A stretch of 63,759 nucleotides of DNA from Candidatus Parcubacteria bacterium (GCA_023132155.1 JAGLYP010000028.1:1-63759); one strand, 5' to 3'. Positions 1,632 to 60,438 are shown, numbered from the stretch's first letter. A program made the numbers and translations. The notes: generated from the sequence alone by a model not told the origin.

Positions 1632-2426
1632 ATGGTATCAAAAAATACAATTTTAAGCGCTAAAGACAGTAAATTAATAGAAAAAGTCATTATAAAACAT
1701 GGTGATATTGTTGCTGTCGGCAGTATTTTAAAAATATTTCAAAAAGAATATTCACTTCTTGCCGCCCGCAACAGAATACACCAGCTGAAAAAAAGAGGCT
1801 GGTTTGTCCGTGTTAAACAAGGGCTTTATGTTGTTGTTAGCGATATTGCATCAAGATCAACGAGCAATATATCTTTATTTAGAATAGCTCAGACTCTAAA
1901 TAACAAATCTTATGTAAGTTTTGATTACGCGTTAAATTACTATAATATGTTTGACCAATACGCGAAAACGATTACATCAATTACGACAACACGAGCAAAA
2001 AAATATGAATTTCAAGAAATAATTTTTAAGTTTGTTAAAATTAATAAAAATTATTATTTTGGTTTTTCCAAAAAACGAATTGAAGGCAAATTAGTCAACA
2101 TAGCCGATTTGGAAAAAGTTATTATTGATTATCTTTATTTTAATAAAACTTCCTATATTTTAAGCTTGATGCTGGAAAAATTAAAAAATTATAAAAATGA
2201 TTTTGATTTTGAAAAGATGCAAAATTATGCTTCGCGCTGCAACATAACAACACAGCGTAAAATCGGTTTTTTATTGGATGAAATAGGAGTTGATACTAAA
2301 AAATTATATAATAAAGTAAAATCAAACAACAAGGGATATTCTCGTTTTAGCAAAGATTCAAAAAAATTTAACAGTAAATGGCGCGTATATTATGATTATA
2401 GAATTATTAAACAAAAGAGAACTTGA
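1632..2426 (+). CDS. abiEi: type IV toxin-antitoxin AbiEi-family antitoxin / transcriptional regulator
   Basis: The N-terminal wHTH segment RNRIHQLKKRGWFVRVKQGLYVVV matches the AbiEi signature L.kkGwl.r..rGlY. The gene sits directly upstream of, and overlaps, an AbiEii gene. Confidence 0.8.
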   Translation: MVSKNTILSAKDSKLIEKVIIKHGDIVAVGSILKIFQKEYSLLAARNRIHQLKKRGWFVRVKQGLYVVVSDIASRSTSNISLFRIAQTLNNKSYVSFDYALNYYNMFDQYAKTITSITTTRAKKYEFQEIIFKFVKINKNYYFGFSKKRIEGKLVNIADLEKVIIDYLYFNKTSYILSLMLEKLKNYKNDFDFEKMQNYASRCNITTQRKIGFLLDEIGVDTKKLYNKVKSNNKGYSRFSKDSKKFNSKWRVYYDYRIIKQKRT

Positions 2427-3150
2427 AATTTTCAATAAACATTTAAAATATCCTTTGGCTATCGCGGAAAAGGATTATTTTTTAGCGCTTGTGTCTAAAA
2501 TAATTTATAATTCCGTTTTGCGTGAAAAATTAGTATTTAAGGGCGGTACAGCTTTGTATCATGTCTATTTAAAGCAATTGCGGTTTTCCGAAGATTTGGA
2601 TTTTACCGCGGTCAAAAAGCCGGTTATCATTGATGAAATAAAAAAAATATTCGCTCCGTATGATTTTTTGGAAATTAAAAAAGAACATACTTCAAAAGCG
2701 ACAATTAAATTAGAAAGATTAAAGTTCAATGGTCCGCTGGGACAGCCGAATTCTTTAAAAATAGATATTGATTTTATTCAAAATGTTGTTTTACCCCCGG
2801 TGGATATGGAATACAGGAATAATTACGGCGTAAAAACAAAAGTCAGGGTTATGGATATACGCGAAATATGCGCTGAAAAAATCAGGACAATAAGCGATAG
2901 GGCGAGATATAGGGATTTTTATGATTTAACCATGATATTCAGAAATTTCAAAATTCATCCTGAAGAAATCATCAGTTTAATAAAGCAAAAAGAAATTCGC
3001 CGGCCAATTACAAAAAAGTCAATGTTGAAAAATTGGAAAATTGTTAAACAAGACAAACGGAACGGGTTGTCTAGTATTTATTATTCAGAAGAAATAAGCG
3101 ATAATGAAATTCAGCAAATGATAAAGGGGCTAAGGCTGAAAATACATTAA
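2392..3150 (+). CDS. abiEii: AbiEii/AbiGii-family nucleotidyltransferase toxin
   Basis: FKGGTALYHVYLKQLRFSEDLDFT is the hallmark KGGTAL...RFSEDiDf motif. The ATG at 2392 overlaps the abiEi 3' end by 35 nt. Confidence 0.85.
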   Translation: MIIELLNKRELEIFNKHLKYPLAIAEKDYFLALVSKIIYNSVLREKLVFKGGTALYHVYLKQLRFSEDLDFTAVKKPVIIDEIKKIFAPYDFLEIKKEHTSKATIKLERLKFNGPLGQPNSLKIDIDFIQNVVLPPVDMEYRNNYGVKTKVRVMDIREICAEKIRTISDRARYRDFYDLTMIFRNFKIHPEEIISLIKQKEIRRPITKKSMLKNWKIVKQDKRNGLSSIYYSEEISDNEIQQMIKGLRLKIH

Positions 3151-3441: not shown

Positions 3442-3470
3442 TTGACAAATTTGTTTTTATATGCTAGATT
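3442..3470 (+). promoter_or_regulatory. sigma-70-like promoter (TTGACA-17-TAGATT)
   Basis: TTGACA lies at 3442-3447 and TAGATT at 3465-3470, separated by a 17-nt spacer. An A/T-rich region with CTATTTTTAG direct repeats lies upstream. Confidence 0.5.
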
Positions 3471-3477
3471 TTAAATG

Positions 3478-3560
3478 CAAGTTATGCCCAAAGGGCACTA
3501 ACAGTAGTCGGGAATACGCCCCAAAGGAAGTGCCCTTGGGGTATTCAAATTCCTTGACTA
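3478..3560 (+). promoter_or_regulatory. conserved structured leader element, copy 1 (long form)
   Basis: CAAGTTATGCCCAAAGGGCACTAACAGTAGTCGGGAATacgccccaaaggaagtgcccttggggtATTCAAATTCCTTGACTA recurs at 24651-24752 and, reverse-complemented, at 40797-40852. It lies between a promoter and the GT2 start codon. Confidence 0.6.
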
Positions 3561-3592
3561 TAAATTAAAAAATAATTATAAGTAAAAATAAT

Positions 3593-4525
3593 ATGTATTT
3601 ATCAGTAGTTGTTCCAATACTTGACGAGGAGGGTTCTGTTTTGGATTTATATAATGATATAATTCTTTCTTGTGCAAAGATAGAAAAAGAATTTGAAATT
3701 ATTTTTGTTAATGACGGTTCAAACGATAGAACCTTGGAAATAATAAAAAAACTAAAGCCTCTTAAAATTATAAGTTTTAGAAAAAATTTCGGGCAGACAG
3801 CGGCAATGGACGCGGGTATTAAGCACGCCCAAGGCAAATATATTGTTACTATGGACGGCGATGGACAAAATGATCCTGCGGATATTCCAAAATTGATTGA
3901 GAAATTGGAATCAGGCGGACTTGATGTCGTGTCGGGCTGGAGAAAAAACAGAAAAGATAATTTTTTAAAGAAATTTTCATCAAAGTGCGCGGCCGCTTTA
4001 AGGCGAGTATTGATTAATGACGGCATCCATGACAGCGGCTGCTCTTTAAAGGTTTATAAAAAAGAATGTTTTGAGTGCGTTGATCTTTACGGCGAGATGC
4101 ATCGCTTTATTCCGGCAGTGTTGAAGATAAAGGGCTTTAAAATAGGGGAAGTTGTAGTCAATCATAATCCGCGAACTACTGGCAAGACAAAGTATAACTG
4201 GAAAAGGGGAGTTAAGGGCATTCTTGATATGTTCGCGGTTTGGTTTTGGAAAAAATATTCAAATCGTCCGCTTCATTTTTTCGGCGGCCTGGGCATTCTT
4301 TTAATGTTTGTTTCCGTTGTTTCCGGCGTTTGGGCGGTTTATAAAAAGTTTTTTTTAAACGTTGATTTATCCGATACTTCTTTAACGATTTTAAGCATGG
4401 GCGGTTTTTTTATGGGAGTTTTATTTTTCGTTTTCGGCCTTTTGTCTGATATTCTTTCAAAAATTTATTATTCATCAGGCATAGACAAGCCGTATCATAT
4501 AAAGGAGATTATTAACAACGATTAA
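3593..4525 (+). CDS. GT2 polyprenyl-phosphate glycosyltransferase (GtrB/ArnC/Dpm1-like)
   Basis: VVPILDEE...FVNDGSNDRT...FRKNFGQTAAMDAGIKHAQGKYIVTMDGDGQNDPADIPKLI, followed by two C-terminal TM helices, is the classic GtrB-type architecture. Confidence 0.85.
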   Translation: MYLSVVVPILDEEGSVLDLYNDIILSCAKIEKEFEIIFVNDGSNDRTLEIIKKLKPLKIISFRKNFGQTAAMDAGIKHAQGKYIVTMDGDGQNDPADIPKLIEKLESGGLDVVSGWRKNRKDNFLKKFSSKCAAALRRVLINDGIHDSGCSLKVYKKECFECVDLYGEMHRFIPAVLKIKGFKIGEVVVNHNPRTTGKTKYNWKRGVKGILDMFAVWFWKKYSNRPLHFFGGLGILLMFVSVVSGVWAVYKKFFLNVDLSDTSLTILSMGGFFMGVLFFVFGLLSDILSKIYYSSGIDKPYHIKEIINND

Positions 4526-4582: not shown

Positions 4583-4717
4583 TTTTGTCATTCCCGACAC
4601 ACCCAATCTCGCCCTCTTTTTTGTCATTCTCTACACATCTTTGCCCCGCTCACTTTTGTCATTCCCGACACTCCCAGCCTCGCAGAGAAGTTATATTAAA
4701 TGATCGGGAATCTCTTT
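4583..4717 (+). repeat. cluster of three TGTCAT-type repeat units (MITE-like)
   Basis: The units are TTGTCATTCCCGACACacccaatctcgccctc, TTGTCATTCTCTACACatctttgccccgctcac, and the full unit TTTTGTCATTCCCGACACTCCCAGCCTCGCAGAGAAGTTATATTAAATGATCGGGAATCTC. The full unit has an ATTCCCGA/TCGGGAAT stem. Confidence 0.65.
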
Positions 4718-6752: not shown

Positions 6753-8570
6753 ATGGAAGAAGAAAAATTACAAATTGCGATTTATAGAATAAATACTGAA
6801 AATGATTTATTATTTGAAGCGGAAGACAGCTTCGCTTGTTTAAGTGAGCGCATAAAAAGCAAAGGATTTAGCAGTCAAAATTTGCAAGACGATTTAATAG
6901 GTGATTATGATATAGGGCTTTTTTACAAAAAGAGTCCATTAAAACCAAAATGGAAAGATTTTTTCAATGGTATTGCAAAAGATAATCAAGATATTCTAAA
7001 GTTAAATCAAGGTTGGACTGAAAGTTTTGTAATACTTTTTTTAAATAATATTTCTAATAATTTGTATGCAATAACAGGTGGTTCAGGATATCATGTTATT
7101 CAAGAATTTATTGACGATGATTTTGGAGTAGATATTTTATCTTGTCTGATAACGAAAGAAGATAAAATTTTAAAATCAGTGAAAGAAAAAAGTGTTATGG
7201 GCGGAATATTAGGAGCAACTAAGTATTTTAGAAAAAATTATAATCTTTTTGAAAATGATGGTTTCGGGAAAATTTATCAGGAGCTAAAGGCATGTTTAGA
7301 TAAAAATATACTTCAAGATCAGTTTGGTTTTTCTGCGGAGGATTTGAAAAAAGAATCTGCCTGTATTGCAAAAACATCTTTTAAAATAAACAAAGCAATT
7401 ACTTTTAATCAGATTTTTCAAATTATAGATAGGTGCGAATATATTTTAGAGAATCCAGATAATGACCCAAGACTGAAACCAATATCAATAAATAATGTTG
7501 AAAAAATTGTAAAAAAGAAAAAACAAAGGTTAATCCGTGAATTAGAAAATGAGTTGTTTAATCAACTCTGGAAAAGATATTGTGATGAAAATGAGAATAT
7601 AGATTTTGATCTTTGCCATAAAGATTTTGAAAAGTATTTAACAGCTTCAAAATATATTGTTAAAAAAAATATTTCTAAAAATAATCTTTTTGATGATTTT
7701 GAGTTCACGGATGATAAAAAATTGGAAAATATTGATGAATTATTTAAGCAAATAAAAGAATTAGATGGTAGTCCAAGCGACAAGGATGAACTTGAAAGTT
7801 TAATAAAATCTTTAAAAATTTATTCATATAATGATGAAGATGAAATTAATGAGTTGACTAAAGGTTATGTGCTTCATCATATTTTTGGAGATGTTTCTTT
7901 TGATGGAAAAAAATATTTTTTGATTGACAATAATTGGTATAAAATAAAAGATGATTTTATTGATGAATTAAATCAAAGTTGTGAAAGTTTTATTAATAGC
8001 AATCATGATGATGGTCTGGATAAAAAATGGAATTATCCAACTATTAGCGAAAATCAATATAATGAAAGCTATCTGGGTGAAAATAAAACGATTGTTTTGG
8101 ATAAAATTACTCCTGACAATATTGAGCCATGTGATATTTTGAAATGGGATGATGAAAATTTATATTTTTATCATGTAAAGGCTGGTTTTGGAAATACAAT
8201 GAGAGATTTATGTTCGCAAATTTTTATTGCCGCAAATAAAATAAAGAAAGATATAAATTCTTCAAAAGAATATATTGGTAAAATTTATGATCAATTAAAA
8301 AATAAAAAAGGGAGTACAGATGAATATTTTGATAAGATAGGGAAACAGACAGAAATTGTATCAAAAGATGATTTCATAAATTTTTTTACAAGCAAAAAAC
8401 TTGTTTTTGTTTTATCAGTTTTAGACACAGCAACTGAAAGGAATTTAAAAACTGATATTTCTGAGTTTAACTCAAATATAGCAAAATTTTCGTTACAAGA
8501 GTTAGTAAAAGCAATGAAAGGGATTGATGTAGAATTTAGAATTATACAAATTTTTAAGCAAACAGAATAG
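6753..8570 (+). CDS. TIGR04141/DUF6119-like sporadically distributed protein, function unknown
   Basis: The 605-aa protein has an N-terminal block LYAITGGSGYHVIQEFIDDDFGVDILSCLI..DKILKSVKEKS. A C-terminal block reads IEPCDILKWDDENLYFYHVKAGFGNTMRDLCSQIFIAA. Both resemble the family blocks as I recall them (fA.tFG.g..ll....e.dFGl.v.LN......lrs and E.cDl......lihvK....S..lSHLf.Qg..Sa). No search was run. Confidence 0.55.
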   Translation: MEEEKLQIAIYRINTENDLLFEAEDSFACLSERIKSKGFSSQNLQDDLIGDYDIGLFYKKSPLKPKWKDFFNGIAKDNQDILKLNQGWTESFVILFLNNISNNLYAITGGSGYHVIQEFIDDDFGVDILSCLITKEDKILKSVKEKSVMGGILGATKYFRKNYNLFENDGFGKIYQELKACLDKNILQDQFGFSAEDLKKESACIAKTSFKINKAITFNQIFQIIDRCEYILENPDNDPRLKPISINNVEKIVKKKKQRLIRELENELFNQLWKRYCDENENIDFDLCHKDFEKYLTASKYIVKKNISKNNLFDDFEFTDDKKLENIDELFKQIKELDGSPSDKDELESLIKSLKIYSYNDEDEINELTKGYVLHHIFGDVSFDGKKYFLIDNNWYKIKDDFIDELNQSCESFINSNHDDGLDKKWNYPTISENQYNESYLGENKTIVLDKITPDNIEPCDILKWDDENLYFYHVKAGFGNTMRDLCSQIFIAANKIKKDINSSKEYIGKIYDQLKNKKGSTDEYFDKIGKQTEIVSKDDFINFFTSKKLVFVLSVLDTATERNLKTDISEFNSNIAKFSLQELVKAMKGIDVEFRIIQIFKQTE

Positions 8571-17386: not shown

Positions 17387-18451
17387 TTAAATATTTAAGA
17401 CATAGTGAGTGGCTGAACCTTTACCAATTTTTTTTAAAAGTTTTATTGATTCAAGTTCTTGTAAATATTTTTGAGCCATTCTTTCTTTAATATTTAAAAT
17501 ATCTTGTACGTCCTTACTATCAACTTTCCCCATAGTCATCATAAAATCAACGATTTTGATTTGTTTTTTATCCAGATAAACATGCCCGCCGATTTTTTTT
17601 AACATTTTGGCATCCAAGCTTAACGGTACGATAATATTATAAATTTTTTCCATTTCATGCGCAAATCCTTTACTGAAATACGTTATCCAATTAGTTAAAT
17701 CGCCTTGCGCTCTTTCCTGATAATTTTTACCCAAATGAATCGCCTTGTAATATGACGGGCGATCTTGATTATAATAATCTTCCAAAGCAAAAAGGCGGCG
17801 GAAGTCATAGCCTGATTTATAAAGGATTAAAGTCGCTAAAAGGCGGGCCGTTCTGCCATTACCGTCCGCGAAAGGATGAATGGCGGCAATTTCCGCGTGC
17901 GCTATGCTTGATATTATAATAGGGCAGATATTTTCTTTTTTTGATTTTTCCATCCAATCAATTAAATTTTTTACCAATTTTGGCACTTGTCTTGCAATCG
18001 GTCCTGTGTAAGACACCTTGATAATCTTATTGCCGCGGCGGCTAACCACATAAACATCGCTTTTTCTGAATTTTCCGCATTTTTCTTTATCAAGCACATT
18101 TTTAGTGGTAAGCCGATGAATTTCAAGAATTGTTTTAACAGTGATTTTTTGTTTTTTTTCAATAAGCTTTGTAATATAATACAAAGCGTCGCGGTAATTT
18201 TTAACCTCGGCAATATCTCGCTTGGGAGCATCAACTTTTTCGCCTGCCAAAACCTTTTCCACTTCATAACGATTTAAAATATTTCCCTCAATGCTTGTGG
18301 AAGAATGGATCATTCTAATCATCGCTTCTCGCCTTAATTTTAATTCCTGCCGCGGCATAATAGGAGTATGCGCGACCAATGACTTAATCTCGGCAATACC
18401 GATTAAATCATTAAGAATTGAATGAGTAATTGTGTATTTTGGTTTAAACAT
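17387..18451 (-). CDS. fic: Fic-family protein (AMPylase type) with N-terminal inhibitory helix and C-terminal wHTH
   Basis: HPFADGNGRTARLLATLIL matches the Fic motif HPFx[D/E]GNGRxxR. SSTSIEGN matches the [S/T]xxxE[G/N] auto-inhibition motif upstream of the core. The C-terminal ERMAQKYLQELESIKLLKKIGKGSATHY is wHTH-like. Confidence 0.85.
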   Translation of the reverse strand: MFKPKYTITHSILNDLIGIAEIKSLVAHTPIMPRQELKLRREAMIRMIHSSTSIEGNILNRYEVEKVLAGEKVDAPKRDIAEVKNYRDALYYITKLIEKKQKITVKTILEIHRLTTKNVLDKEKCGKFRKSDVYVVSRRGNKIIKVSYTGPIARQVPKLVKNLIDWMEKSKKENICPIIISSIAHAEIAAIHPFADGNGRTARLLATLILYKSGYDFRRLFALEDYYNQDRPSYYKAIHLGKNYQERAQGDLTNWITYFSKGFAHEMEKIYNIIVPLSLDAKMLKKIGGHVYLDKKQIKIVDFMMTMGKVDSKDVQDILNIKERMAQKYLQELESIKLLKKIGKGSATHYVLNI

Positions 18452-21234: not shown

Positions 21235-21630
21235 ATGTTAGACAACAATGATTTAAAACAAATTAAGAAAATAATGGATAGCAAATTTGATGATTTTGCT
21301 ATTGTTGTTAATAAGGGATTTGAACAAGTTGATAAACGTTTTGATGAGCAAGACAAACGTTTTGACGCACAGGATAAACGTTTTGAAAGTATTGATAAAC
21401 GTTTTGATGAAATAAAAAGTGAGATTACTGAAATAAAAAGTGAAATTGGAACAATTAAATATGAAATCGCAACGCTTTCTGAAAAATTTGATAAATTAGA
21501 ACAAAAAGTTGATAGGTTGATTAATACTGAAAATGAAAATATTATTGCTCTTAATAAAGAGGTTGAAAGAATAAAAGAGAAATTAAAAATTTTAGAAACA
21601 AAGATTCAAGAGCATGCCGTGCCGGCATAG
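21235..21630 (+). CDS. coiled-coil protein with DKRFDxQ heptad repeats
   Basis: The 131-aa protein contains VDKRFDEQDKRFDAQDKRFESIDKRFDE, encoded by four 21-nt tandem repeats at about 21331-21414. Heptad-patterned helices follow. Confidence 0.65.
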   Translation: MLDNNDLKQIKKIMDSKFDDFAIVVNKGFEQVDKRFDEQDKRFDAQDKRFESIDKRFDEIKSEITEIKSEIGTIKYEIATLSEKFDKLEQKVDRLINTENENIIALNKEVERIKEKLKILETKIQEHAVPA

Positions 21631-24198: not shown

Positions 24199-24204
24199 TA
24201 AATA

Positions 24205-24303
24205 ATGCTATGAATATAATGCTAATCCGCGAATAAATGCTAATCCGCGAATTGCGAATAATTAATATTAGCAATTCGCGGAATTAGCATTATTCATTAG
24301 CAT
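24205..24303. repeat. ATGCTAAT-N3-GCGAAT direct and inverted repeat array
   Basis: ATGCTAATCCGCGAAT(A/T) occurs twice, at 24219 and 24237. A degenerate copy lies at 24205 and an inverted copy (ATTCGCGGAATTAGCAT) at 24274-24290. Together they can form a long hairpin downstream of pilT. Confidence 0.65.
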
Positions 24304-24316
24304 TATTATAAAAAAT

Positions 24317-24646
24317 ATGATGCCGGAAAAATGGGAAAGTATTATTGGAAATATTAAAGACAAGTTCACAATCAAAGACGAGGGTAAGCTTCATCTTGAC
24401 GAAGAAGGGGGAATTGATATTGAATTTATAGAATTTGAAGGCCCCCTGGGCTTAATGAGGCTTGAATTTGTTTCCCGTCCGATTGTTCTTGATAAAAAAA
24501 CGATTTATTCAAGACGCATAGGTTCGGAAACTAAAGTTGATTACGTTTACAGTGAAAACGAAAAAAGCCATAAATTAATTGTTTACAAATGGGACGGCGA
24601 TGAAAATGATTGGCTGGAGGTTGACGATAAAAATCTTTTCGCTTAA
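24317..24646 (+). CDS. hypothetical protein (109 aa)
   Basis: The ORF has coding-like composition. No motif was recognised. Confidence 0.5.
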   Translation: MMPEKWESIIGNIKDKFTIKDEGKLHLDEEGGIDIEFIEFEGPLGLMRLEFVSRPIVLDKKTIYSRRIGSETKVDYVYSENEKSHKLIVYKWDGDENDWLEVDDKNLFA

Positions 24647-24650: not shown

Positions 24651-24752
24651 CAAGTTATACCCTAAAGGGCATTTTATGCCCAAAGGGCGCTAACAGTAGT
24701 CAGGAATACGCCCCAAAGGAAGTGCCCTTGGGGTATTCAAATTCCTTGACTA
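24651..24752 (+). promoter_or_regulatory. conserved structured leader element, copy 2 (long form with duplicated first hairpin)
   Basis: The sequence is CAAGTTATACCCTAAAGGGCATTTTATGCCCAAAGGGCGCTAACAGTAGTCAGGAATACGCCCCAAAGGAAGTGCCCTTGGGGTATTCAAATTCCTTGACTA. It ends 13 nt before the ATG at 24766. Confidence 0.6.
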
Positions 24753-24765
24753 AAATTTAAAATAT

Positions 24766-25236
24766 ATGCTGAATAAAAATAAAATTTTTATAATTTTGGC
24801 AATAATCATATTGCTTTTCTTTTTTTATTATATTTTTTCCGTTAAAACGGTTGTATTAAAAAAGCCGGCTACGCAAGACAAAGCTGAAAATATCGCGGCT
24901 CTGAAAAAATTAAGCATGCGAGAAAAACTTGAATTAAAAAATAATTATAATAGCAAGATCGCGGATATTTTATCTCGGTATGAAGAAAATTTGGAAAAAA
25001 TTAAAGAAGCCGAAAGCGATGATGATAATTTTTATGAAAATTTAGATGCTTTAAAATTGGAGGCGCTCGCCCTGATTGTTCCGGGGGAATATAAAAATAC
25101 GCATTTGGAAATAGCTTTAATATTTTCCAGAATAAACGAATTATGCGCCAAAGACAAAGTGGAAGAAAATTTTAATTTAATTAATGAATTACTGGCTCAA
25201 GCCGGAAATTTAAAGAGTAATTTGAAAAACCTGTAA
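24766..25236 (+). CDS. membrane-anchored hypothetical protein (156 aa)
   Basis: An N-terminal TM span (IFIILAIIILLFFFYYIF) is followed by a helical soluble part. Confidence 0.5.
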   Translation: MLNKNKIFIILAIIILLFFFYYIFSVKTVVLKKPATQDKAENIAALKKLSMREKLELKNNYNSKIADILSRYEENLEKIKEAESDDDNFYENLDALKLEALALIVPGEYKNTHLEIALIFSRINELCAKDKVEENFNLINELLAQAGNLKSNLKNL

Positions 25237-29123: not shown

Positions 29124-29237
29124 TTTTGTCATTGCGAGCGCCAGCGAAGCAATCCCGTGGTTCTTGTATTGCCCGCTGTTAATCCGCACATGATATTCTG
29201 TGGCACGGGATTGCTTCGCAAGCTCGCAATGACAAAA
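29124..29237. mobile_element. MITE-like hairpin element with TGTCATTGCGAGC... terminal inverted repeats
   Basis: The left arm is TTTTGTCATTGCGAGCGCCAGCGAAGCAATCCCGTG and the right arm is CACGGGATTGCTTCGCAAGCTCGCAATGACAAAA, which is imperfect in the middle. The core is about 45 nt. The element begins 3 nt after the lepA stop codon. Confidence 0.7.
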
Positions 29238-33501: not shown

Positions 33502-33771
33502 ATAATATTAATTTATTTACAAATATATTTTACAGCCTATTTCGTTTTTAGTCAATTTTAAACGATTTGCCTAATAAAAACTTTTTTAAACTGCTCTTTA
33601 CTGGTATAATGTAGATATGTTAACCACCCATGCTATACACTTACATTATTATTAATTGTTTTTTTATTGTTTTAACGAGTGTTTTTTAGCATTTTGATAA
33701 ACGTCCATCCTCTTTGATTTTTTATTTTGATGAGTAATTATTTTTTTTGTCATCTTAACAAGCACCTCCTC

Positions 33772-34237
33772 TTTTGTCATCTCGACGAGCGCAGCGAGGA
33801 GAGATCTATAATACATGAATTATGCAAAAAGACTACAATTTTTACGTCTATGTCGTAAGTAATTTCAAAAGAACTTGTTTTTATATTGGATTTTGTAACG
33901 ATATATTGCGTCGGACAATTGAACACATGTATGGCCTCGGCAGCAGTTACACCAAAAAATACAAAACAAAAGACTTGTTATATTATGAACATTATCAATA
34001 TGTAAATAGCGCAATCTACAGAGAAAAAGAAATAAAAAAATGGCGGAGAGAAAAGAAGTTAGAACTAATAAAAAATAATAACCCAGGGTTAAAAACATTA
34101 AATCAGGAGTTGTTTAATACGCACAGGATAAGCCCAAGAGGCATTCAGGAAATAATAACTATATTAAAAGAGAATTATAGGAATAAGTAATAATATATTA
34201 AAGATCTCTCCTCGCTGCGCTCGTCGAGATGACAAAA
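33772..34237 (+). mobile_element. 466-bp cassette bounded by perfect 36-bp terminal inverted repeats, with a GIY-YIG gene as sole cargo
   Basis: Positions 33772-33807 read TTTTGTCATCTCGACGAGCGCAGCGAGGAGAGATCT, and 34202-34237 are the exact reverse complement (checked base by base). Partial extra end copies lie at 33746-33762 and 34245-34290. Confidence 0.7.
33822..34190 (+). CDS. GIY-YIG nuclease superfamily protein (UPF0213/YhbQ-like)
   Basis: FYVYVVSNFKRTCFYIGFCNDILRRTIEH........Y...L.Y.E....E....A..REKEIKKWRREKK supplies the GIY...YIG, Arg, Glu and KxW-R-KK pattern of small stand-alone GIY-YIG proteins. Confidence 0.85.
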   Translation: MQKDYNFYVYVVSNFKRTCFYIGFCNDILRRTIEHMYGLGSSYTKKYKTKDLLYYEHYQYVNSAIYREKEIKKWRREKKLELIKNNNPGLKTLNQELFNTHRISPRGIQEIITILKENYRNK

Positions 34238-34318
34238 AAAGGGGCTCGTCGAGATGACAAAAAAAGGGGAAAGCTCGTCAAAACGACAAGGAAACAAGAG
34301 CTAATCAATACGAAATAT

Positions 34319-35350
34319 ATGGAAGAAAAATTAAAAAAAGTTAAAGCCTTATGGGAGAGGTTAAAAGTTAGCGGGGCGACAAGCAAGGAATTGTGTGAAT
34401 TAATTAAAAATGTTCCTGAATTAAGGAATGAGGTTTGGCGGGAATTGAAAAAGAATAATCCCACCAACGAGGATTTGCGTTTTTTAATTGAATTTGTTGA
34501 TGGTGATTTACAAAAAGAATTTTGGGAAGAATTGAAAAAAAATAAAATTTCAAATTTTGAATTAAAAAATATTATTGAATATGTTGAACCGTTTAGAAAA
34601 GAAGCTTGGAAAAAACTTTTAAAACAAAAACCGACTAATTTTGAATTGCGCGATATTGCGCGATATGTCGAGCCATTAAGGCATGACGCGTGGAAAAAAT
34701 TGGCAAAACAAAAGCCGACTGAAAATGATCTGATATATATAATTAAATTTGTTGAATCATTAAGGAAAGACGCTTGGAAAAAACTGGCGAAAATGAATCC
34801 GGATACTGATAATTTATTATATATAATTAAATATGTTAAAGAACTTAGGGAGGATGCATGGAAATTAACGCTTAAATTAAGGCAATCAAATGATATAATA
34901 AGAAAAATAATAACCAAAGTGCCTGATTTCAGGGAGCGCGCGTGGGAAACGCTTTTGGCGCAAAATCCAAGCAACAGTGATTTATGCTTTATAATAAAAG
35001 ACGTTGAATCGCTGCGCGAACAGGCATGGAAAGAATTTTGCAAAAAGAATCCTTCTAACGAGGATTTGCGTTTTATATTGAAGCATGTTAAAGAATTAAG
35101 AAGCAGGGCATGGAAAAATTTATTGGAGCGGAAGCCGACAAATAATGATTATTGTTTTATCATAAAAGATGTTGAATCTTTGCGTGTTGAGGCTTGGAAA
35201 AAATTTATAAAAAACAAACCGACAGACGATGAAATTGATTTTATAATCCGCTATATTCCGACTTTAAAAAATTACGCGGAACGATATAAAAAGACTAAAA
35301 ATAATAAAATTTTAGAAGAGATTAAAGATATTTATTTATATGAAAAATGA
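34319..35350 (+). CDS. alpha-helical tandem-repeat protein (~10 x 32-33 aa, HEAT/ARM-like)
   Basis: The unit P(T/S)N.DL..II..V..LR..AWK.L.K.K repeats about 10 times. The start is set at ATG 34319 (MEEKLKK), because the longer ORF from 34229 begins inside the TGTCAT repeat copies. Confidence 0.65.
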   Translation: MEEKLKKVKALWERLKVSGATSKELCELIKNVPELRNEVWRELKKNNPTNEDLRFLIEFVDGDLQKEFWEELKKNKISNFELKNIIEYVEPFRKEAWKKLLKQKPTNFELRDIARYVEPLRHDAWKKLAKQKPTENDLIYIIKFVESLRKDAWKKLAKMNPDTDNLLYIIKYVKELREDAWKLTLKLRQSNDIIRKIITKVPDFRERAWETLLAQNPSNSDLCFIIKDVESLREQAWKEFCKKNPSNEDLRFILKHVKELRSRAWKNLLERKPTNNDYCFIIKDVESLRVEAWKKFIKNKPTDDEIDFIIRYIPTLKNYAERYKKTKNNKILEEIKDIYLYEK

Positions 35351-38136: not shown

Positions 38137-40770
38137 TTATTTCACATTAACCAATAATTTATCTTTAATTCCAAGATCAATTGATATCTTGTTTCCTTCT
38201 TTGATTTTGCCTTTAATAATTTCCAGAGCCAATTCATCAAGGATTGAATTTTGTATGATTCTTTTTAACGGCCGCGCTCCAAAAGTTATATCATAACCCT
38301 TGTTAGCCAGCATTTTTTTAACTTTAGCCGCGATTTTTAGCTTAATATTTTTGTCAAGCAGTCTTTTTTCCAATTTATTTAATTCAAGATCCACTATTTC
38401 AACCAATACCTTTTTGCTAAGGCTTTTGAATATTACAATTTCGTCAATTCTATTTAAAAATTCCAGCTTAAAATTTTCTTTAAGAATTATGTCAATTTTT
38501 TCTTTCATTTCGCTATCTCTGATTTTAACGGCTTCCGCCTTATCGCTTTCATCGGAAAATCCGATTGAATATTGCTTAATAACTTCATTGCCAAGATTGG
38601 ATGTCATAATGATAATTGAATTTTTAAAATTAACCACCCGTCCCTTAGCATCGGTTAAACGGCCATCATCTAAAATTTGCAAAAGAATATTAAATACTTC
38701 AGGGTGGGCTTTTTCAATTTCATCAAATAAAATTACGCTATAAGGGCGGCGGCGGATTTTTTCCGTTAACTGTCCGCCTTCTTCATGTCCGATATAGCCG
38801 GGAGGGGAGCCTATCATGCGGGCAACGCTGTGCTTTTCCATAAATTCACTCATATCCAGCCTGATTAAAGCATTTTCATCGTTAAACATAAAGTCCGCCA
38901 AGGTTTTGCCTAATTCGGTTTTTCCCACGCCGGTTGGTCCGACAAACAGGAATGATCCGATTGGTTTTTGCTCTTCGGATATTCCGGCTCGCGAACGGCG
39001 AATCGCGTTGGCAACAGATTTAATCGCGTCATCCTGGCCCCTGACGCGCTTAGACAATTCAATTTCGGCTTTTGCCAGTTTTTTAATTTCAGATTCAAGC
39101 ATTTTTGAAACCGGAATTCCCGTCCAGCGGGCTACAACTTTGGCAATATCTTCATTGTCAATTTCTTCTTTTAATATTCTTTGCCCTTTTTTCTGGATAT
39201 TTAATAATCCTGTTTCCAATTCTTTTACGTCTTTTTCCAATGCTGGAATTTTCGCGTATCTGATTTCCGCTACTTTAGCCAAGTCTTCACCCTGTCTTTC
39301 AATAATTTCAGCTTCAGCTTTCAAATTATCAATTTCTTTCTTTTTTACGCTTATTTTTGATATGATATTTTTTTCGTTGTTCCAGTGCAATTCAATTTGA
39401 TCGGCTTTTTCTTTAAATTCTTCAATTTGCTTATTTAAATGCTTGATTTTTACATTGCTTTTTTTGTCATGTTTTAAACCGGCTTTTTCAATTTTTAATC
39501 TTTTAATTTCTCTTTTTAATTTATCCAGATCCTCGGGCATTGAATCAATTTCCATTCTTAGCGCGCTTGTGGCTTCGTCAACTAAATCAACCGCCTTATC
39601 CGGCAAAAAACGGTCGCTTATATAGCGGGAAGAAAGTTTAACCGCGGACATTATGGCATCATCGGTAATTCTTACGCCATGATGAACTTCATACTTTTCT
39701 TTAATTCCCCTTAAAATCGCGATTGTATCTTCGGCGCTTGGCTCGGAAACGTAAATCGGCTGAAAGCGCCTTTCCAGAGCAGCGTCTTTTTCAATGTATT
39801 TTTGATATTCTTTAACGGTAGTGGCGCCGATTGTTTTTAATTCGCCGCGCGCCAAAGCGGGCTTAAGCATATTTGAAGCATCCATAGCGCCTTCAGACGC
39901 GCCAATTCCGACGATTGTATGCAATTCATCAATAAATAGAATAATTCTGCCTTCTTGAGATTTAATCTCTTTTAAAACCGCTTTTAAACGATCCTCAAAT
40001 TCACCTCTGAATTTCGCGCCGGCGACCATTGAACCCAGGTCAAGGCTGATTAATTCTTTGTTTTTTAAGGTTTCAGGAACATCGCCATCAATAATTCTTT
40101 GCGCCAATCCCTCAACAATCGCGGTTTTTCCCGTTCCGGCCTCTCCGATAACAACCGGGTTGTTTTTTGTGCGGCGAGATAAAATTTGCATTATTCTGCG
40201 AATTTCCTCATCTCTGCCGATTACAGGGTCCAGTTTTTTCTGTTTTGCCAATTCAGTTAAATTAATCGCGTATTTTTCTAAAACTTTATATTTTGTTTCA
40301 GGATTGGGGCTGTCAACTTTTTGCGAACCGCGAAGTTCCGCTAAAATTTTTAAAATATTTTCATAATCAACCCCAAGGCGCAAAAGAATTTCCTGTGATT
40401 CGCTTTTTATGCCGATCAAAGCCAAAAGGATATGTTCGGTGGAAATATATTCATCATCCATTTGATCGGCTTCTTTTTTTGCTCTTTCTAAAATCATTGC
40501 CACCTCCGCGGTACCCTGAACCGCGCCAACATTTTCCGGCACAGGAGTAGGGGACTTTGGCCTTTTTTCAATTTTTTTAAAAATCATATCTTCCACTTCT
40601 TCGGGTGAAATTTTTAATTTTTCCAAAACCGGCTTAATTAAGCTTTCGCTTTGGGTTAAAAGCGCGGCAAAAATATGCAAGCTTTCAATCTGAGATTGCC
40701 CGTAATCCTGGGCGATAATTTGCGCGTTAATAATCGCTTCTTGTGATTTATTGGTAAACTTATTAAACAT
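38137..40770 (-). CDS. clpB: ATP-dependent chaperone/disaggregase ClpB
   Basis: The 877-aa protein has two AAA+ modules ([15 protein letters not shown] and [15 protein letters not shown]). It also has a Clp N-domain and the long coiled-coil middle domain that separates ClpB from ClpA/C. Confidence 0.95.
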
Positions 40771-40796
40771 AATATTTATATTAAATCTTTAATTTA

Positions 40797-40852
40797 TAGT
40801 CAAGGAATTTGAATATTCCCGACTACTGTTAGTGCCCTTTGGGCATAACTTG
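40797..40852 (-). promoter_or_regulatory. conserved structured leader element, copy 3 (short form)
   Basis: The minus strand reads CAAGTTATGCCCAAAGGGCACTAACAGTAGTCGGGAATATTCAAATTCCTTGACTA. It lacks the 27-nt inner hairpin of copies 1 and 2. It lies between CIRCE and the clpB ATG. Confidence 0.6.
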
Positions 40853-40856
40853 TAAG

Positions 40857-40883
40857 TTAGCACTCTCACTGCTTGAGTGCTAA
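40857..40883 (-). promoter_or_regulatory. CIRCE operator (HrcA binding site)
   Basis: TTAGCACTC-N9-GAGTGCTAA is a perfect match to the CIRCE consensus. It starts 4 nt downstream of the -10 box. Confidence 0.85.
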
Positions 40884-40887
40884 TTTA

Positions 40888-40916
40888 ATAATAGTATTTA
40901 TGGAGCATGTTGTCAA
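40888..40916 (-). promoter_or_regulatory. sigma-70-like promoter of clpB (TTGACA-17-TATTAT)
   Basis: On the minus strand, TTGACA lies at 40916-40911 and TATTAT at 40893-40888. Confidence 0.65.
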
Positions 40917-46447: not shown

Positions 46448-47413
46448 TTATTCCTTCATATTCCGCCCGCTATGAACCTTCCTGTGAATATCTTTAAGCT
46501 GTTTATTGGTTACATGGGTATAAATTTGCGTAGTTGCGATATTTTGATGGCCTAAAAATTCTTGCACCATGCGCAAATCAACGCCTTGGGCAAGCAAGTC
46601 GGTGGCAAAAGAATGCCTAAGCGTATGCGGTGTGGACGCGATTGGCAATCCGCAAATTTTAACATATTTTTTTACGATGTTTTCAATGCTTTTTACGGTT
46701 AAACGGCGCTCCGCGCCGTTTTTTTCAATTCCCGGCTTATAATTTATAAACAAAGCATCGTCAATATCGTTGCGTTTATCTAAATATTTTTTTAGAGATC
46801 TTGTCGCGCGCGCGGACAAATAAACAGTTCTGATTTTTCCGCCCTTACCGGTAATTGATAACTCAATTTCATCAGTAATTTTTGGAATTTTAATTTGTTC
46901 GCGATTTAACGCGACAAGTTCGGCAACTCTTAACCCTGTTGAAAATAAAGTTTCTAAAATCGCCCGATCTCTTAAGCCGATCGCGGTAGACATGTTAGGG
47001 GAGAGTAGGAGTCTTTCCAATTGTTCCAGTTTTAAAAATTTTACTTCTCTTTGAGTTTTATCCCTGGCTAATTTAATGGAGGTGGGGGAGAGTGAATTGA
47101 TTTTTTTTTCAACAAAGAAATCAAGCAGGCCGCGCAAAGCAATTAGATAATAATTCTGCGTTGATTTTTTAAGGGCGGTTTTTGTCCGCGGATCAACGTG
47201 TCTGGATAAAAAAAGGCGATATTTCCAAATATGCTTATCATTTAATTTTTCCGGCTTTAATTTATCTAAATTATTATCGCTTAGCCAATTAAAAAATTTA
47301 TTTAAAAAACGAGAGTAATTTTCTTGCGTTTTCGCGCTCAATCCCCTCTCAATTTCCAAAAAATCAAGGTAGTCAATCAGATATTCAATTATTGGTTTTG
47401 AGTTGTTTTGCAT
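46448..47413 (-). CDS. tyrosine recombinase, XerC/XerD family
   Basis: An N-terminal SAM-like domain is present. The catalytic pattern is R..., HTLRHSFATDLL, then LGHQNIATTQIYTHV. Confidence 0.9.
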   Translation of the reverse strand: MQNNSKPIIEYLIDYLDFLEIERGLSAKTQENYSRFLNKFFNWLSDNNLDKLKPEKLNDKHIWKYRLFLSRHVDPRTKTALKKSTQNYYLIALRGLLDFFVEKKINSLSPTSIKLARDKTQREVKFLKLEQLERLLLSPNMSTAIGLRDRAILETLFSTGLRVAELVALNREQIKIPKITDEIELSITGKGGKIRTVYLSARATRSLKKYLDKRNDIDDALFINYKPGIEKNGAERRLTVKSIENIVKKYVKICGLPIASTPHTLRHSFATDLLAQGVDLRMVQEFLGHQNIATTQIYTHVTNKQLKDIHRKVHSGRNMKE

Positions 47414-47432: not shown

Positions 47433-47589
47433 TTGTCATTGCGAGCTGCTAGTTTTTTGTCATTGCGAGCGCTGTTGTAATTGTCATTGCGAGCGCCAGC
47501 GAAGCAATCCCGTGCCACAGAACACCAGGCGTGATAACAATGGACGGTGCAGGAACCGCGGGATTGCTTCGCTGGCGCTCGCAATGACA
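47433..47589. mobile_element. two solo TGTCATTGCGAGC half-sites followed by a complete MITE-like hairpin element (47481-47589)
   Basis: The complete element has 32-bp perfect arms, TTGTCATTGCGAGCGCCAGCGAAGCAATCCCG and CGGGATTGCTTCGCTGGCGCTCGCAATGACAA. Its core resembles the reverse complement of the core at 29124-29237. Half-sites lie at 47433 and 47456. Confidence 0.75.
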
Positions 47590-47932
47590 AGCAAAAGGGC
47601 TAACATTAACTATATTTTACGACCTAAACCACCTCTATACAATACGTCGCATAATGTAGATTAAACGAAGTATTATTAAAAGATATGGCAATTTAGCTAT
47701 TTAAATTTTATCATTATCTTAATTCAATAGGACTAAAATGTATGCCAAAAAAACTAAACTCCCCCGTAAACATAAACAATATTTTAATAAACAGCAAAAA
47801 AAATCCAATTACGGTTAGACAAAAAACAATTATAGCTAAAACAAATACAATTTTAAAAGCAATTTCCATATTTTATTATTTTGGCTAACATTAAATAAAA
47901 TAAATATATTTTATTTAATGTTAGCTATTTAA

Positions 47933-58509: not shown

Positions 58510-59925
58510 TTACTCAGCCAATCTACTCCTAAACACTGCCAAAGGAGTTCTTATAAGGATTGATAAATCCAGTAAAATTGACCAATTTTCAATGTAATAC
58601 GTGTCAAGTTTAACCTCTTCTTCAAAGCTTAAATCGCTTCTTCCGGAAATCTGCGCCATGCCGGTCATTCCAGGTTTTATAGTTAAAACTTTTTTGTGAT
58701 GATGTTCATAGCGCGCGACTTCTTCCGGCAGATGCGGCCTTGGTCCGACTAAACTCATTTTTCCGGTAAAAACCAAAAATAATTCCGGCAATTCATCTAT
58801 GCTAAAATGTCGGATAAATTCGCCGAATCTGGTAATTCTCGGATCATCCTGTATCTTAACCATGGGTCCGTCGTTTCTTGTATTGCGGCCAGCCAGCTCT
58901 GAGTATCTCAAGTTGTCGGTTTTTGGAATCATGGAACGGAACTTAAAATAATGAAATAAATTACCCCCTTGCCCAACTCGATATAGAAGCGAATTATCGT
59001 CTTTCCTGGAAAAAAATATCGGTCCTTTAGAATCAATTTTGATAATTATAACCGTCAAAATCAAAATTGGGCTAAAAATTACAATCAAAACGGAAGAGCC
59101 GATTAAATCAAAAATTCTTTTTGCTATTCTCCCCCATCCGTCAAGCGGAGTTTTTTTGACTTCAATTATCGGAATACCGGCAATTTCATTTACCTCGGTT
59201 TTTAAAACTTTCGCGTCCAATAAATCCGCAACATATTTAAAAACGATATGATGCTCATCGGCAAAATCGTAAAGCCTTAAAATTTCTCCCTTGCTTAAAT
59301 TAGGATTACTCTGGATAACTTCATCAACCTCTTTTAATTTTAAAAATTCTTCCAGTTCTTGCGCGGATTCAATGCTAAAATCCCTTAGGCGCTTAACAAT
59401 CTTGTATCCGAAAGCGCTTGAAGATGAAAATTTTTTAATGAGATTATCAGCGGTTTTGCTGTTGCCGACTAAAACAACTTTATGGACTCCGATGCCTTTT
59501 TTAAATAACGATCTTTGGATTAAACGAATTACAATTCTTGCTAAACTTATATAAAAAACCGCTAAAATCAGCCCTGCTAAAACAATAAAGCGAGAATCAA
59601 ATAATTCACGCCGCATAAATATCAATATCACTATCAACATAAAGCCGGTTGAACACGCCAACACTACCCGATAAATTTCTTTAATCAATTTTCGCGCGCT
59701 TTTTATGGAGTAAAGCCCGGCAAAAGCAAAAATAATAATCCATAAAATCGCGATCGCGATTAATACTTTGAAATACCCGTTAAAATTCAAATCAAAAATT
59801 ATCGGACGATATTCTTGAAAAAAATCAGCATACCGAATATAGTACGCTGATACGCCTGCCAAAATTATTGCCATGTAATCCAACGGAATCAATAAAAATG
59901 AAAAAAATAGTTCGCTTCGTTTCAT
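58510..59925 (-). CDS. polyprenyl-phosphate hexose-1-phosphate transferase (WbaP/WcaJ-type bacterial sugar transferase)
   Basis: Four or five N-terminal TM spans are followed by KRIFDLIGSSVLIVIFSPILILTVIIIKIDSKGPIFFS...SLVGPRP..P.E....PGMTG. The start is set at ATG 59925 (MKRSELFF), because the upstream 48 codons of the track ORF overlap the RNase P RNA gene. Confidence 0.85.
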   Translation of the reverse strand: MKRSELFFSFLLIPLDYMAIILAGVSAYYIRYADFFQEYRPIIFDLNFNGYFKVLIAIAILWIIIFAFAGLYSIKSARKLIKEIYRVVLACSTGFMLIVILIFMRRELFDSRFIVLAGLILAVFYISLARIVIRLIQRSLFKKGIGVHKVVLVGNSKTADNLIKKFSSSSAFGYKIVKRLRDFSIESAQELEEFLKLKEVDEVIQSNPNLSKGEILRLYDFADEHHIVFKYVADLLDAKVLKTEVNEIAGIPIIEVKKTPLDGWGRIAKRIFDLIGSSVLIVIFSPILILTVIIIKIDSKGPIFFSRKDDNSLLYRVGQGGNLFHYFKFRSMIPKTDNLRYSELAGRNTRNDGPMVKIQDDPRITRFGEFIRHFSIDELPELFLVFTGKMSLVGPRPHLPEEVARYEHHHKKVLTIKPGMTGMAQISGRSDLSFEEEVKLDTYYIENWSILLDLSILIRTPLAVFRSRLAE

Positions 59926-59947
59926 AAAACTTGATAATATAACAAAA

Positions 59948-60438
59948 ATATCAGGACAAGCTATAAGCCGGATCCTGTCCTCCTGCGCTGAAGCTTCGGA
60001 GGACAAGTTCCCTATTTCTTTAAAAAAAAGAGAGCCTGCCCTCCGAAGCTGTAAACGTAGGAGGGGCAATCATTTATCTAGCCCGATTATTGCCAATCGG
60101 GTCATGCGAGCCACTTTTTTCGCGTGGAAGCAAAGCTTCTTTAACGCGATTTGCTCTTGCTTTAGACAGGGTTTACCGCGTACACTCTGTTGCCAGAGGA
60201 CGAGATTTATAGCTTTTTATCTCGAGAACAAAAAACACCAAATCACTTTTCACCTTTCACCAGCGCGAAAGCGCTGGTTAGTATTGTCTCTGTGGCACTT
60301 TCCCTGGAATTTCTTCCGGTGGGCGTTACCCACTGTCGCTTTCATTTTGGATAAAATCCATGCTGGATAAAACCAAAAATCAAAGTCCGGACTTTCCTCC
60401 CCGGTTATACCGGGGTAATTGCCCGCTTATCCTGATAT
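59948..60438 (-). ncRNA. rnpB: RNase P RNA, bacterial type A
   Basis: The minus strand contains these conserved blocks in order: GGAGGAAAGTCCGGAC (P4 5' strand), GGTAACGCCCACC, AGTGCCACAGAGACAA, GGTGAAAGGTGAAAAG, GGTAAACCC, CTAGATAAATGATTGCCCC and GGACAGGATCCGGCTTAT (P4 3' strand). A 14-bp P1 pairs ATATCAGGATAAGC (60438-60425) with GCTTGTCCTGATAT (59961-59948). Confidence 0.9.

Follow-up and report, generated by a model that had tools for sequence, protein, structure and literature searches.

A modular hairpin repeat, probably mobile, behind three apparent leaders in a Parcubacteria genome

A 63,759-nt stretch of DNA from Candidatus Parcubacteria bacterium (GCA_023132155.1 JAGLYP010000028.1:1-63759; "the window" below means the whole of this stretch) carries three copies of a structured element, situated before a GT2 gene, between the genes for proteins of 109 and 156 amino acids (aa) within an operon, and before clpB. 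A reading made from the sequence alone had taken these copies for a co-oriented cis-regulatory leader, thermosensor or processing/stability element. Our analysis favors mobility: with a probability of about 0.8, we are dealing with a mobile DNA repeat, non-autonomous, modular and hairpin-forming, that is confined to a narrow Parcubacteria (Patescibacteria) clade. Each of the three "leaders" is one copy of this repeat and not a dedicated RNA switch for the adjacent genes. Copies have inserted into intergenic DNA in either orientation, and have been amplified separately in each host genome.

Window copies and orthologous sites

In the window, exact matches to the 23-nt core GGGCRCTAACAGTAGTCRGGAAT occur three times, as do those to the 18-nt 3' part ATTCAAATTCCTTGACTA (shuffles expect 0.00 and 0.32, respectively), in agreement with the three core occurrences noticed earlier, and a covariance model search of the window returned no copies beyond these. 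The copies and the features around them are as follows, where L and a number denote a collected locus.

3478..3560, plus strand: copy 1, long form, 83 nt (sequence; covariance model match of 82.5 bits; exact empty site at L151:484^485)
3481..3502, plus strand: hairpin 1 of copy 1, GTTATGCCC AAA GGGCA-C-TAAC (fold; pair counts; two compensatory changes in L027:4373-4433)
3504..3560, plus strand: hairpin 2 of copy 1, GTAGTCGGGAAT ... ATTCCTTGACTA (fold; compensatory variants in L053 and L050)
3516-3542, plus strand: nested 27-nt insert hairpin inside hairpin 2 of copy 1 (fold; insert found only in the element, 17/17)
3561..3567, plus strand: TAAATTA, pre-existing target motif directly 3' of copy 1, outside the unit (present in the L151 empty site; flank logo)
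3442..3470, plus strand: TTGACA-17-TAGATT, host promoter-like site of GT2, outside the element (promoter scan; kept in element-free L151)
24651..24752, plus strand: copy 2, 102 nt, two 5' hairpin modules and a long-form hairpin 2 (sequence; covariance model match; element-free orthologous junctions)
24753..24759, plus strand: AAATTTA, target-like motif 3' of copy 2 (comparison with the L147 empty junction)
40797..40852, minus strand: copy 3, short form, 56 nt (sequence; covariance model match of 95.7 bits; absent at orthologous clpB loci)
40790..40796, minus strand: TAAATTA, target-like motif 3' of copy 3 (sequence; flank logo)
40857..40916, minus strand: clpB promoter-like site TTGACA-17-TATTAT (40916-40888) and CIRCE operator TTAGCACTC-N9-GAGTGCTAA (40883-40857), host sequence outside the element (promoter scan; arrangement kept in element-free relatives)

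Copy 1 (CAAGTT, hairpin 1, CTAACAG, hairpin 2 with the 27-nt insert, and the end CCTTGACTA) falls within the 5' untranslated region of GT2 (gene 3593-4525), close to where transcription of that gene is predicted to start and 32 nt before its ATG. Copy 2, which has the 27-nt loop insert in common with copy 1 and carries a duplicated 5' hairpin module and a G-to-A stem change, occupies the junction of the 109-aa gene (24317-24646) and the 156-aa gene (24766-25236), 13 nt before the ATG of the latter. Copy 3 stands 26 nt before the ATG of clpB (38137-40770, minus strand), with CIRCE interposed between it and the promoter-like site, as had been described. The uniform placement claimed for the copies (co-oriented with the downstream gene and ending 13-32 nt before its ATG) holds for the three in the window, but not for the family at large. 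Similarly, the promoter-like sites at 3442 and 40916 can be upheld, but not that at 24621 (TTGACG-17-TAAATT), which lies within the VDDKNLF codons, in the conserved 3' coding end of the 109-aa gene upstream; element-free relatives have it as well.

When orthologous loci are compared, each of the three window copies proves to be an insertion specific to its lineage, the orthologous sites being empty. For copy 1 the relevant locus is that of P0006, a GT2 homologue (90% identical) in GCA_030637985.1 (L151), whose flanks match those of the window at 134/153 aligned columns on the right and 39/42 positions beside the junction on the left. The empty site reads ...TAGATTTTGAATG^TAAATTAAAA..., and at the caret the window carries the 83-nt unit 3478-3560. 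Downstream of the junction the relative continues (...TAGATTTTGAATG^TAAATTAAAAAATAATTA...ATG) with no target duplication, and its TTGACA-17-TAGATT site is intact. From this exact empty site it follows that the unit spans the C of CAAGTT to the purine after TTGACT, and that TAAATTA and the promoter-like site belong to the host.

The operon containing copy 2 (T2SSE, p109, p156, DUF5656, PDZ, LepA) is conserved in L144/L145 and L147. The spacer between p109 and p156 is element-free in these relatives and measures 14 nt (L144/L145) and 17 nt (L147) versus 119 nt in the window. Subtraction of the 102-nt unit leaves a window junction of 17 nt, equal to the empty L147 junction (ATTG^TAATTTGAAATAC, 17 nt) and identical to it at 13/17 positions in a comparison by eye. 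Other genomes hold the element elsewhere in the same operon: in RS_2_9 (L011) an antisense copy separates T2SSE from p109, which are 9 nt apart in L144, and in MAG221 (L035) an antisense long-form copy separates p109 from DUF5656, which are 17 nt apart in L011. The element thus occurs at three junctions of the T2SSE-LepA operon, in two orientations and in three genomes, while two genomes lack it, a pattern of independent insertions.

The element is absent from the roughly 30 orthologous clpB upstream regions that were read, including that of RS_8_12, which has 23 copies elsewhere, and nhmmer found no element match in any of 80 clpB loci of related species. Nearly all clpB leaders that reach far enough upstream keep a TTGACA-type promoter, CIRCE, a spacer of ~20-130 nt and the ATG. 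Across the four filled/empty comparisons in which they could be counted, bases beyond the unit numbered 0, 0, 1 and 4, with no consistent duplication.

Two of these host loci hold further repeats. The TTGACA promoter and CIRCE before clpB are conserved across many Parcubacteria (L061-L104), and unrelated GC-rich hairpins lie between CIRCE and the clpB ATG in L061, L062, L069 and L099; small repeats seem frequently to land in this leader. In the window the 118-nt spacer between T2SSE and the 109-aa gene (24199-24316) is one long imperfect palindrome with tandem AATGCTAATCCGCGAAT (DNA fold -33.4 kcal/mol, z -7.75). The same junction has 9 nt in L144, a variant of the palindrome in L147 and a different hairpin in L035, differences which point to a second, unrelated insertion-like palindrome in the operon.

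Family, ends and fold

Scans of 185,579 species-representative genomes with the 3' half of the element gave 38 loci, and with the 5' half 15 new loci, one of them a chance match. A scan with a degenerate upper-stem pattern, whose permitted gap was 1 nt too short for long forms, added two loci and no new stem variants. A metagenome collection yielded three loci only, and a viral contig collection no element match. Searching the ~1 Mb of collected loci with nhmmer revealed 66 copies in 55 loci (redundant window contigs excluded); the family outside the window comprises ~70 copies in roughly ten related Patescibacteria metagenome-assembled genomes (MAGs) and three metagenome contigs. All real matches are on low-GC contigs of Patescibacteria/Parcubacteria MAGs, including a few bins labelled otherwise, and none were found elsewhere in the scans. 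Hosts include MAG221 (13 copies), RS_8_12 (at least 23), RS_2_9 (16), RS_5_13, CSMAG_1835 and CSMAG_518. Short-read contigs terminate within the element, as is expected of a repeat in short-read assembly. The genes that flank copies are functionally unrelated; recurrent neighbor families are response regulators, histidine kinases, AAA ATPases and small GIY-YIG proteins, with no transposase among them. A literature search found no account of such a repeat in Patescibacteria.

Orientation could be assigned for 53 copies, with genes approximated by long open reading frames (ORFs). Where the neighboring genes are on the same strand, 17 copies run with them and 26 are antisense; a further 8 lie in divergent spacers and 2 in convergent spacers. 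The element-free spacers of these loci, taken as controls, comprise 242 tandem, 28 divergent and 36 convergent ones. The element occupies spacer types roughly according to their availability and shows no preference for the sense orientation. Random orientation relative to genes had been named by the sequence-only reading as a finding that would tell against a leader, and the 17 to 26 division is of that kind; the uniform orientation of the three window copies has a one-in-four probability if orientation is random. Many copies are sited in operon junctions of only 10-20 nt, and the CAAGTT end of antisense copies is often 2-19 nt from the start codon of the opposite-strand gene (for example CTTGaaatatATG in L011). 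The mobile repeat offered as an alternative by the earlier reading is upheld, but not its promoter-proximal character, which is not general, many copies lying in operon junctions.

Sequence conservation differs between the element and its hosts. T2SSE genes from the window, L011, L035, L144 and L147 have an overall identity of 85-91% and a third-position identity of 69-78%, whereas 54-55 of 55 positions agree when the window's element core is set against those of L011 and L035, despite their non-orthologous sites; even where third codon positions are only ~73% identical between two genomes, their copies are 98-100% identical. Individual genomes nevertheless have private variants. RS_8_12 carries TTAGGCCC in 6/23 copies and a ACCCTAAA module in 10/23; RS_2_9 carries GGGCAATRAC in 5/16 and GTCAGG in 6/16, and has no long forms; in MAG221 the long form accounts for 9/13 copies and a ACCCGCAAGGGGC module is present in 6/13. 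Because such variants are common to several non-orthologous copies of one genome, they point to within-genome amplification from lineage-specific source copies.

A divergent subfamily with a GGGAC/GUCC upper stem is represented by two copies at L053:1211-1303 and 4142-4234, which lie beside paralogous AAA-ATPase genes and have ~40 nt of identical upstream flank. The shared flank suggests that here the element was duplicated together with its surroundings and not inserted twice.

The inserted unit runs from CAAGTT through CCTTGACT plus one purine (A/G), and ranges from 56 nt (the short form) to 130 nt across the family. Its 5' part consists of one to three tandem hairpin modules of the GCCCAAAGGGC type followed by the linker CTAACAG; its 3' part is an imperfect palindrome (TAGTCGGGAAT / ATTCCTTGACTA), the loop of which may hold a nested hairpin insert of 27 nt or 32 nt. 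Terminal inverted repeats are absent, the ends CAAGTTAT and TTGACTA sharing only CAAG/CTTG. A permutation test for target-site duplication (k = 3-9, four offsets) gave no signal, within-copy flank identity being equal to that between copies. The 5' flank is AT-rich only, with a weak TTA. The 3' flank logo of 62 copies reads R at +1 (A 50, G 12), then T, A, A (62/62), A, T, T, A, and falls to background from +9. Since the junction of empty sites already carries TAAATTA, TAATTAA or TAATTTG, the conservation at +2 to +8 represents a target preference; the purine at +1 is part of the element and pairs with U29. On these comparisons the element inserts immediately 5' of a pre-existing TAAATTA-like motif.

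RNA folding predicts a 5' hairpin (GUUAUGCCC-AAA-GGGCA-C-UAAC) and a 3' hairpin (GUAGUCGGGAAU / AUUCCUUGACUAU), with a nested insert hairpin in copies 1 and 2. Minimum free energies of the three window copies, folded through to the ATG, are -22.3 to -38.7 kcal/mol, with z-scores of -3.75 to -4.8. Sequence and folding both confirm the two-hairpin fold proposed earlier, the 27-nt loop insert of copies 1 and 2, and the G-to-A change and duplicated hairpin of copy 2. When 32 distinct single-module copies are aligned, 97.5% of their stem cells pair, a value that falls to 33-50% when the partner is slid by 1-3 columns. Three double-sided changes are present in the alignment: two in L027:4373-4433, where GUUAUGCCC/GGGCAcUAAC becomes GCUAUGCCA/UGGCAUAGC, and one in L050, where the closing pair changes from U-A to C-G. 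The replacement of GGAAU/AUUCC by GGAC/GUCC in L053 is also compensatory, and was missed by the alignment. Stem pairing and compensatory changes together argue that the hairpins are kept by selection. By comparison the loop of hairpin 2 is variable (ATTCAA, ATTTAA, ATCCAA, ATTGAA and others); the 27-nt insert is confined to this loop in all of its 17 occurrences, and L039 has a different insert there, a 32-nt double hairpin.

On the reverse strand the folds are as good as on the forward strand (-18.5 vs -20.1, -32.9 vs -32.0 and -44.8 vs -38.1 kcal/mol). G.U-type changes in hairpin 2 favor the forward strand, whereas those in the extra 5' modules favor the reverse strand, being A.C on the forward. 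An argument from strand-specific G.U pairs was considered and dropped, since the extra modules carry forward A.C and both strands fold equally well; for the same reasons the data do not identify the functional RNA strand. Helix-compatible length variation had been taken to argue for function at the level of RNA; the structure and its tolerance of length changes are real.

Mobility and its rivals

If the element is a mobile repeat, an enzyme supplied in trans would recognize the conserved hairpins, in a manner like that of REP/RAYT or IS200/IS605-derived elements. A hairpin-reading enzyme of this kind would explain the upkeep of the stems through compensatory changes, and their near-invariant sequence. 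Copies would survive only in harmless places, that is, in intergenic spacers. No terminator-like sites were listed in scans of the copy 1 and copy 3 regions and the element hairpins have no U-tract, so that transcription would not be terminated and operons would be uninterrupted. An inserted copy would be co-transcribed as part of a 5' untranslated region (GT2, clpB) or of an intercistronic spacer (the 109-aa/156-aa junction). There it would add stable stem-loops to the mRNA, any influence of which on stability or translation would be an incidental by-product; effects on neighboring genes are probably incidental.

Several observations weigh against mobility. Covariation is thin, each of the three double-sided changes of the alignment being in a single sequence, and the very high conservation of the element could also reflect a function at the level of the host. 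Strain-level presence/absence polymorphism was not seen, contigs found via identical proteins all sharing the filled sites. No transposase or recombinase is linked to the element: Pfam searches of nearly all window ORFs revealed no Y1/HUH or DDE transposase, the sole recombinase being a XerC/D-like integrase (46448-47413), and tblastn of the ~1 Mb of loci with IS200/IS608 TnpA queries gave no significant match (best E 0.84). The genome scans with the 3' and 5' halves did not find an autonomous or split copy with the same ends. Lastly, copies within 8 kb of each other point in the same direction in 5 loci and in opposite directions in 4, which does not readily fit the strong replication-strand bias expected of IS200/IS605-type transposition; GC skew in the window tracks gene strand only and indicates no replication origin.

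The position of the window copies close to an ATG and in the direction of the downstream gene, the good promoter-like sites before copies 1 and 3, the stable folds and those stem changes that preserve pairing would suit a cis-regulatory RNA leader, transcribed from an upstream promoter and controlling the downstream gene as a thermosensor, riboswitch-like sensor or processing/stability element. A leader of this sort is nonetheless very improbable, being largely refuted by orientation and empty sites: the element is antisense to flanking genes in 26/43 tandem-spacer copies, the orthologous GT2, clpB and operon sites of relatives are without it, and within one operon it occupies different junctions in different orientations. 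Moreover, all bases from TTGACU through to the AUG remain single-stranded in both the minimum-free-energy and the centroid folds of the three copies, so nothing is sequestered and no thermometer-like feature is present; the reverse strand folds equally well; and the "promoter" of copy 2 is coding sequence. Rfam 15 gave no match at the gathering score and, even at E up to 10, nothing beyond chance level (E of at least 1), which bears out the earlier view that no described riboswitch or leader family is involved. Equally improbable is a portable promoter or operator, in which the 3' TTGACT would serve as an outward -35 box or the palindrome TAGTCGGGAAT-N6-ATTCCTTGACTA as the site of a dimeric regulator and its regulon. 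TTGACT does agree with the -35 consensus at 5/6 positions, TATAAG or TATAAA follows 17 nt downstream in copies 1 and 3, and the 3' part is an imperfect palindrome. Yet -10-like hexamers 16-18 nt past TTGACT occur in only 2-3 of 64 copies, which is background, and in several copies the ATG follows just 9-16 nt after TTGACT. The neighboring genes are functionally unrelated and orientation is random; inserts of 27 nt and 32 nt split the palindrome arms, which a dimer site of fixed spacing would not tolerate, and a fixed-spacing protein operator had already been judged the less likely option on the first reading.

A structural repeat that spread by mobility and was then kept for host use in either orientation (protection of mRNA 3' ends, RNase cleavage sites in operons, uncoupling of cistrons), as proposed for E. 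coli REP/BIME, is unlikely, though less so. It would accord with the near identity of the 55-nt core (98-100%) across genomes with ~73% third-position identity, with the good folding of both strands, with the many copies in very short operon junctions beside start codons, and with the scarcity of copies in convergent spacers (2/53). However, orthologous junctions in close relatives do without the element, with spacers of 9-17 nt; its placement within one operon is not conserved; its spread over types of intergenic region is close to that of controls; and genome-private subfamilies suit recent amplification better than ancient maintenance. A further proposal, which we advance tentatively and regard as doubtful, is that the element is moved by a hitherto unrecognized hairpin- and sequence-specific transposition or recombination system of the candidate phyla radiation (CPR), or else is a domesticated, orientation-independent operon-junction module. 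The first of these options is suggested by insertion exactly 5' of TAAATTA without duplication or inverted repeats, by the failure to detect Y1/HUH in the window and the collected loci, and by the lack of an evident replication-strand bias.

With mobility as the preferred reading, the element belongs among bacterial interspersed hairpin repeats; membership in the BOX, PATE or REP/REPIN-RAYT families is not established. By analogy its behavior is closest to that of the modular BOX-type repeats of pneumococci. BOX elements of Streptococcus pneumoniae (boxA, boxB n times, boxC; related RUP and SPRITE) are modular and structured, and are considered parasitic rather than specialized host sequence (PMC3049150). 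The likeness is one of behavior, no relationship of sequence being claimed: both are small interspersed intergenic repeats with a variable number of modules, secondary structure, a narrow clade of hosts and co-transcription with neighbors, the modularity here taking the form of one to three 5' hairpin modules and two kinds of loop insert. The element differs from BOX in the phylum of its hosts, in being shorter (56-130 nt), and in having a defined target motif without duplication.

PATEs derived from IS200/IS605 have no terminal inverted repeats or target duplication and carry imperfect hairpins near both ends (PMC3597680); they insert beside a short specific sequence that is kept at one end (PMC3597680, PMC10055086). 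The element likewise is non-coding and multi-copy, has hairpins near both ends and lacks both inverted repeats and duplication. A TAAATTA-like motif is conserved beside one of its ends (+2 to +8), but this motif is ~7 nt and not 4-5 nt. In contrast to IS608, its target-side hairpin starts at the junction and leaves no room for a guide tetranucleotide. It differs further from PATEs in that nearby copies are without clear strand bias and that TnpA (Y1 HUH) was not found in the window or the ~1 Mb of loci.

REP and REPIN elements with their RAYT transposases are short extragenic imperfect palindromes that are vertically inherited, amplified within genomes and present as lineage-specific variants (PMC3116915, PMC3337134). 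The element resembles them as short extragenic palindromes amplified per genome into near-identical copies with lineage-specific variants. Unlike REPINs, all of its copies are single units and not inverted doublets, and no RAYT-like gene flanked by copies was found in the window and the ~1 Mb of collected loci, which come from incomplete genomes. A GTAG tetranucleotide at the 5' foot of hairpin 2 (CAGTAGTC), here within the stem, resembles a feature of REP sequences. Classical miniature inverted-repeat transposable elements (derivatives of DDE transposons such as Correia elements) are similar in being small, non-coding, multi-copy and intergenic and in differing in presence between relatives; this class was rejected, its defining terminal inverted repeats and target-site duplications having both been tested for and both being absent.

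For annotation, no new riboswitch or thermosensor should be entered for the three similar "leaders" before unrelated genes, which are copies of one repeat. In Parcubacteria even very small genomes harbor a non-coding repeat that has been amplified (one MAG yielded 23 copies from its contigs, and the 64-kb window holds three), and this repeat lands within operon junctions of 10-20 nt and within 5' untranslated regions. Precise, duplication-free insertion beside TAAATTA provides a handle for finding the mobilizing enzyme. The covariance model and the definition of the ends permit masking of the repeat, which would help with contig breaks in assembly, and its use as a strain marker.

Other repeats and genes of the window

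A second repeat family (29126-29235 and 47433-47590, with related heads at 4585, 4656 and 44871) begins with TTGTCATTGCGAGC, a head of which there are six exact instances. Its members form long intergenic inverted repeats, as exemplified by 47481-47512 with 47559-47590, which are 100% complementary. A 122-aa GIY-YIG gene (33822-34190) lies between 52-nt inverted repeats (33765-33816 and 34193-34244, 90% complementary) and resembles a small mobile cassette; small GIY-YIG ORFs like that of the window are also present in L007, L019 and L030. Low-complexity purine/pyrimidine repeats (cagaaagcagaaaacag, gtctgctgtctgtcgtc) flank an element copy in L033 (5400-5560) and the clpB leader of RS_8_12 (L063), and constitute another class of intergenic repeat.

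Genes of defence or toxin type lie near copies (1632-3150, 17387-18451 and 6753-8570): they encode an AbiEii toxin (2392-3150), which a 264-aa ORF overlaps from upstream, and proteins of the Fic/DOC and DUF6119 types. In L154/L155, too, the GT2 homologue is followed by an AbiEii pair. Internal repeats are present in two ORFs, one at 34229-35350 with seven 84-nt units and a weak TPR-like Pfam match, the other at 21235-21630, encoding a 131-aa protein with 21-nt periodic repeats that matches the Nup54 coiled-coil model. Finally, an RNase P RNA of bacterial class A is located at 59948-60434 on the minus strand (173.6 bits). A sugar transferase ORF (58510-60069) overlaps the 3' part of this RNA, and its true start is therefore probably further downstream.

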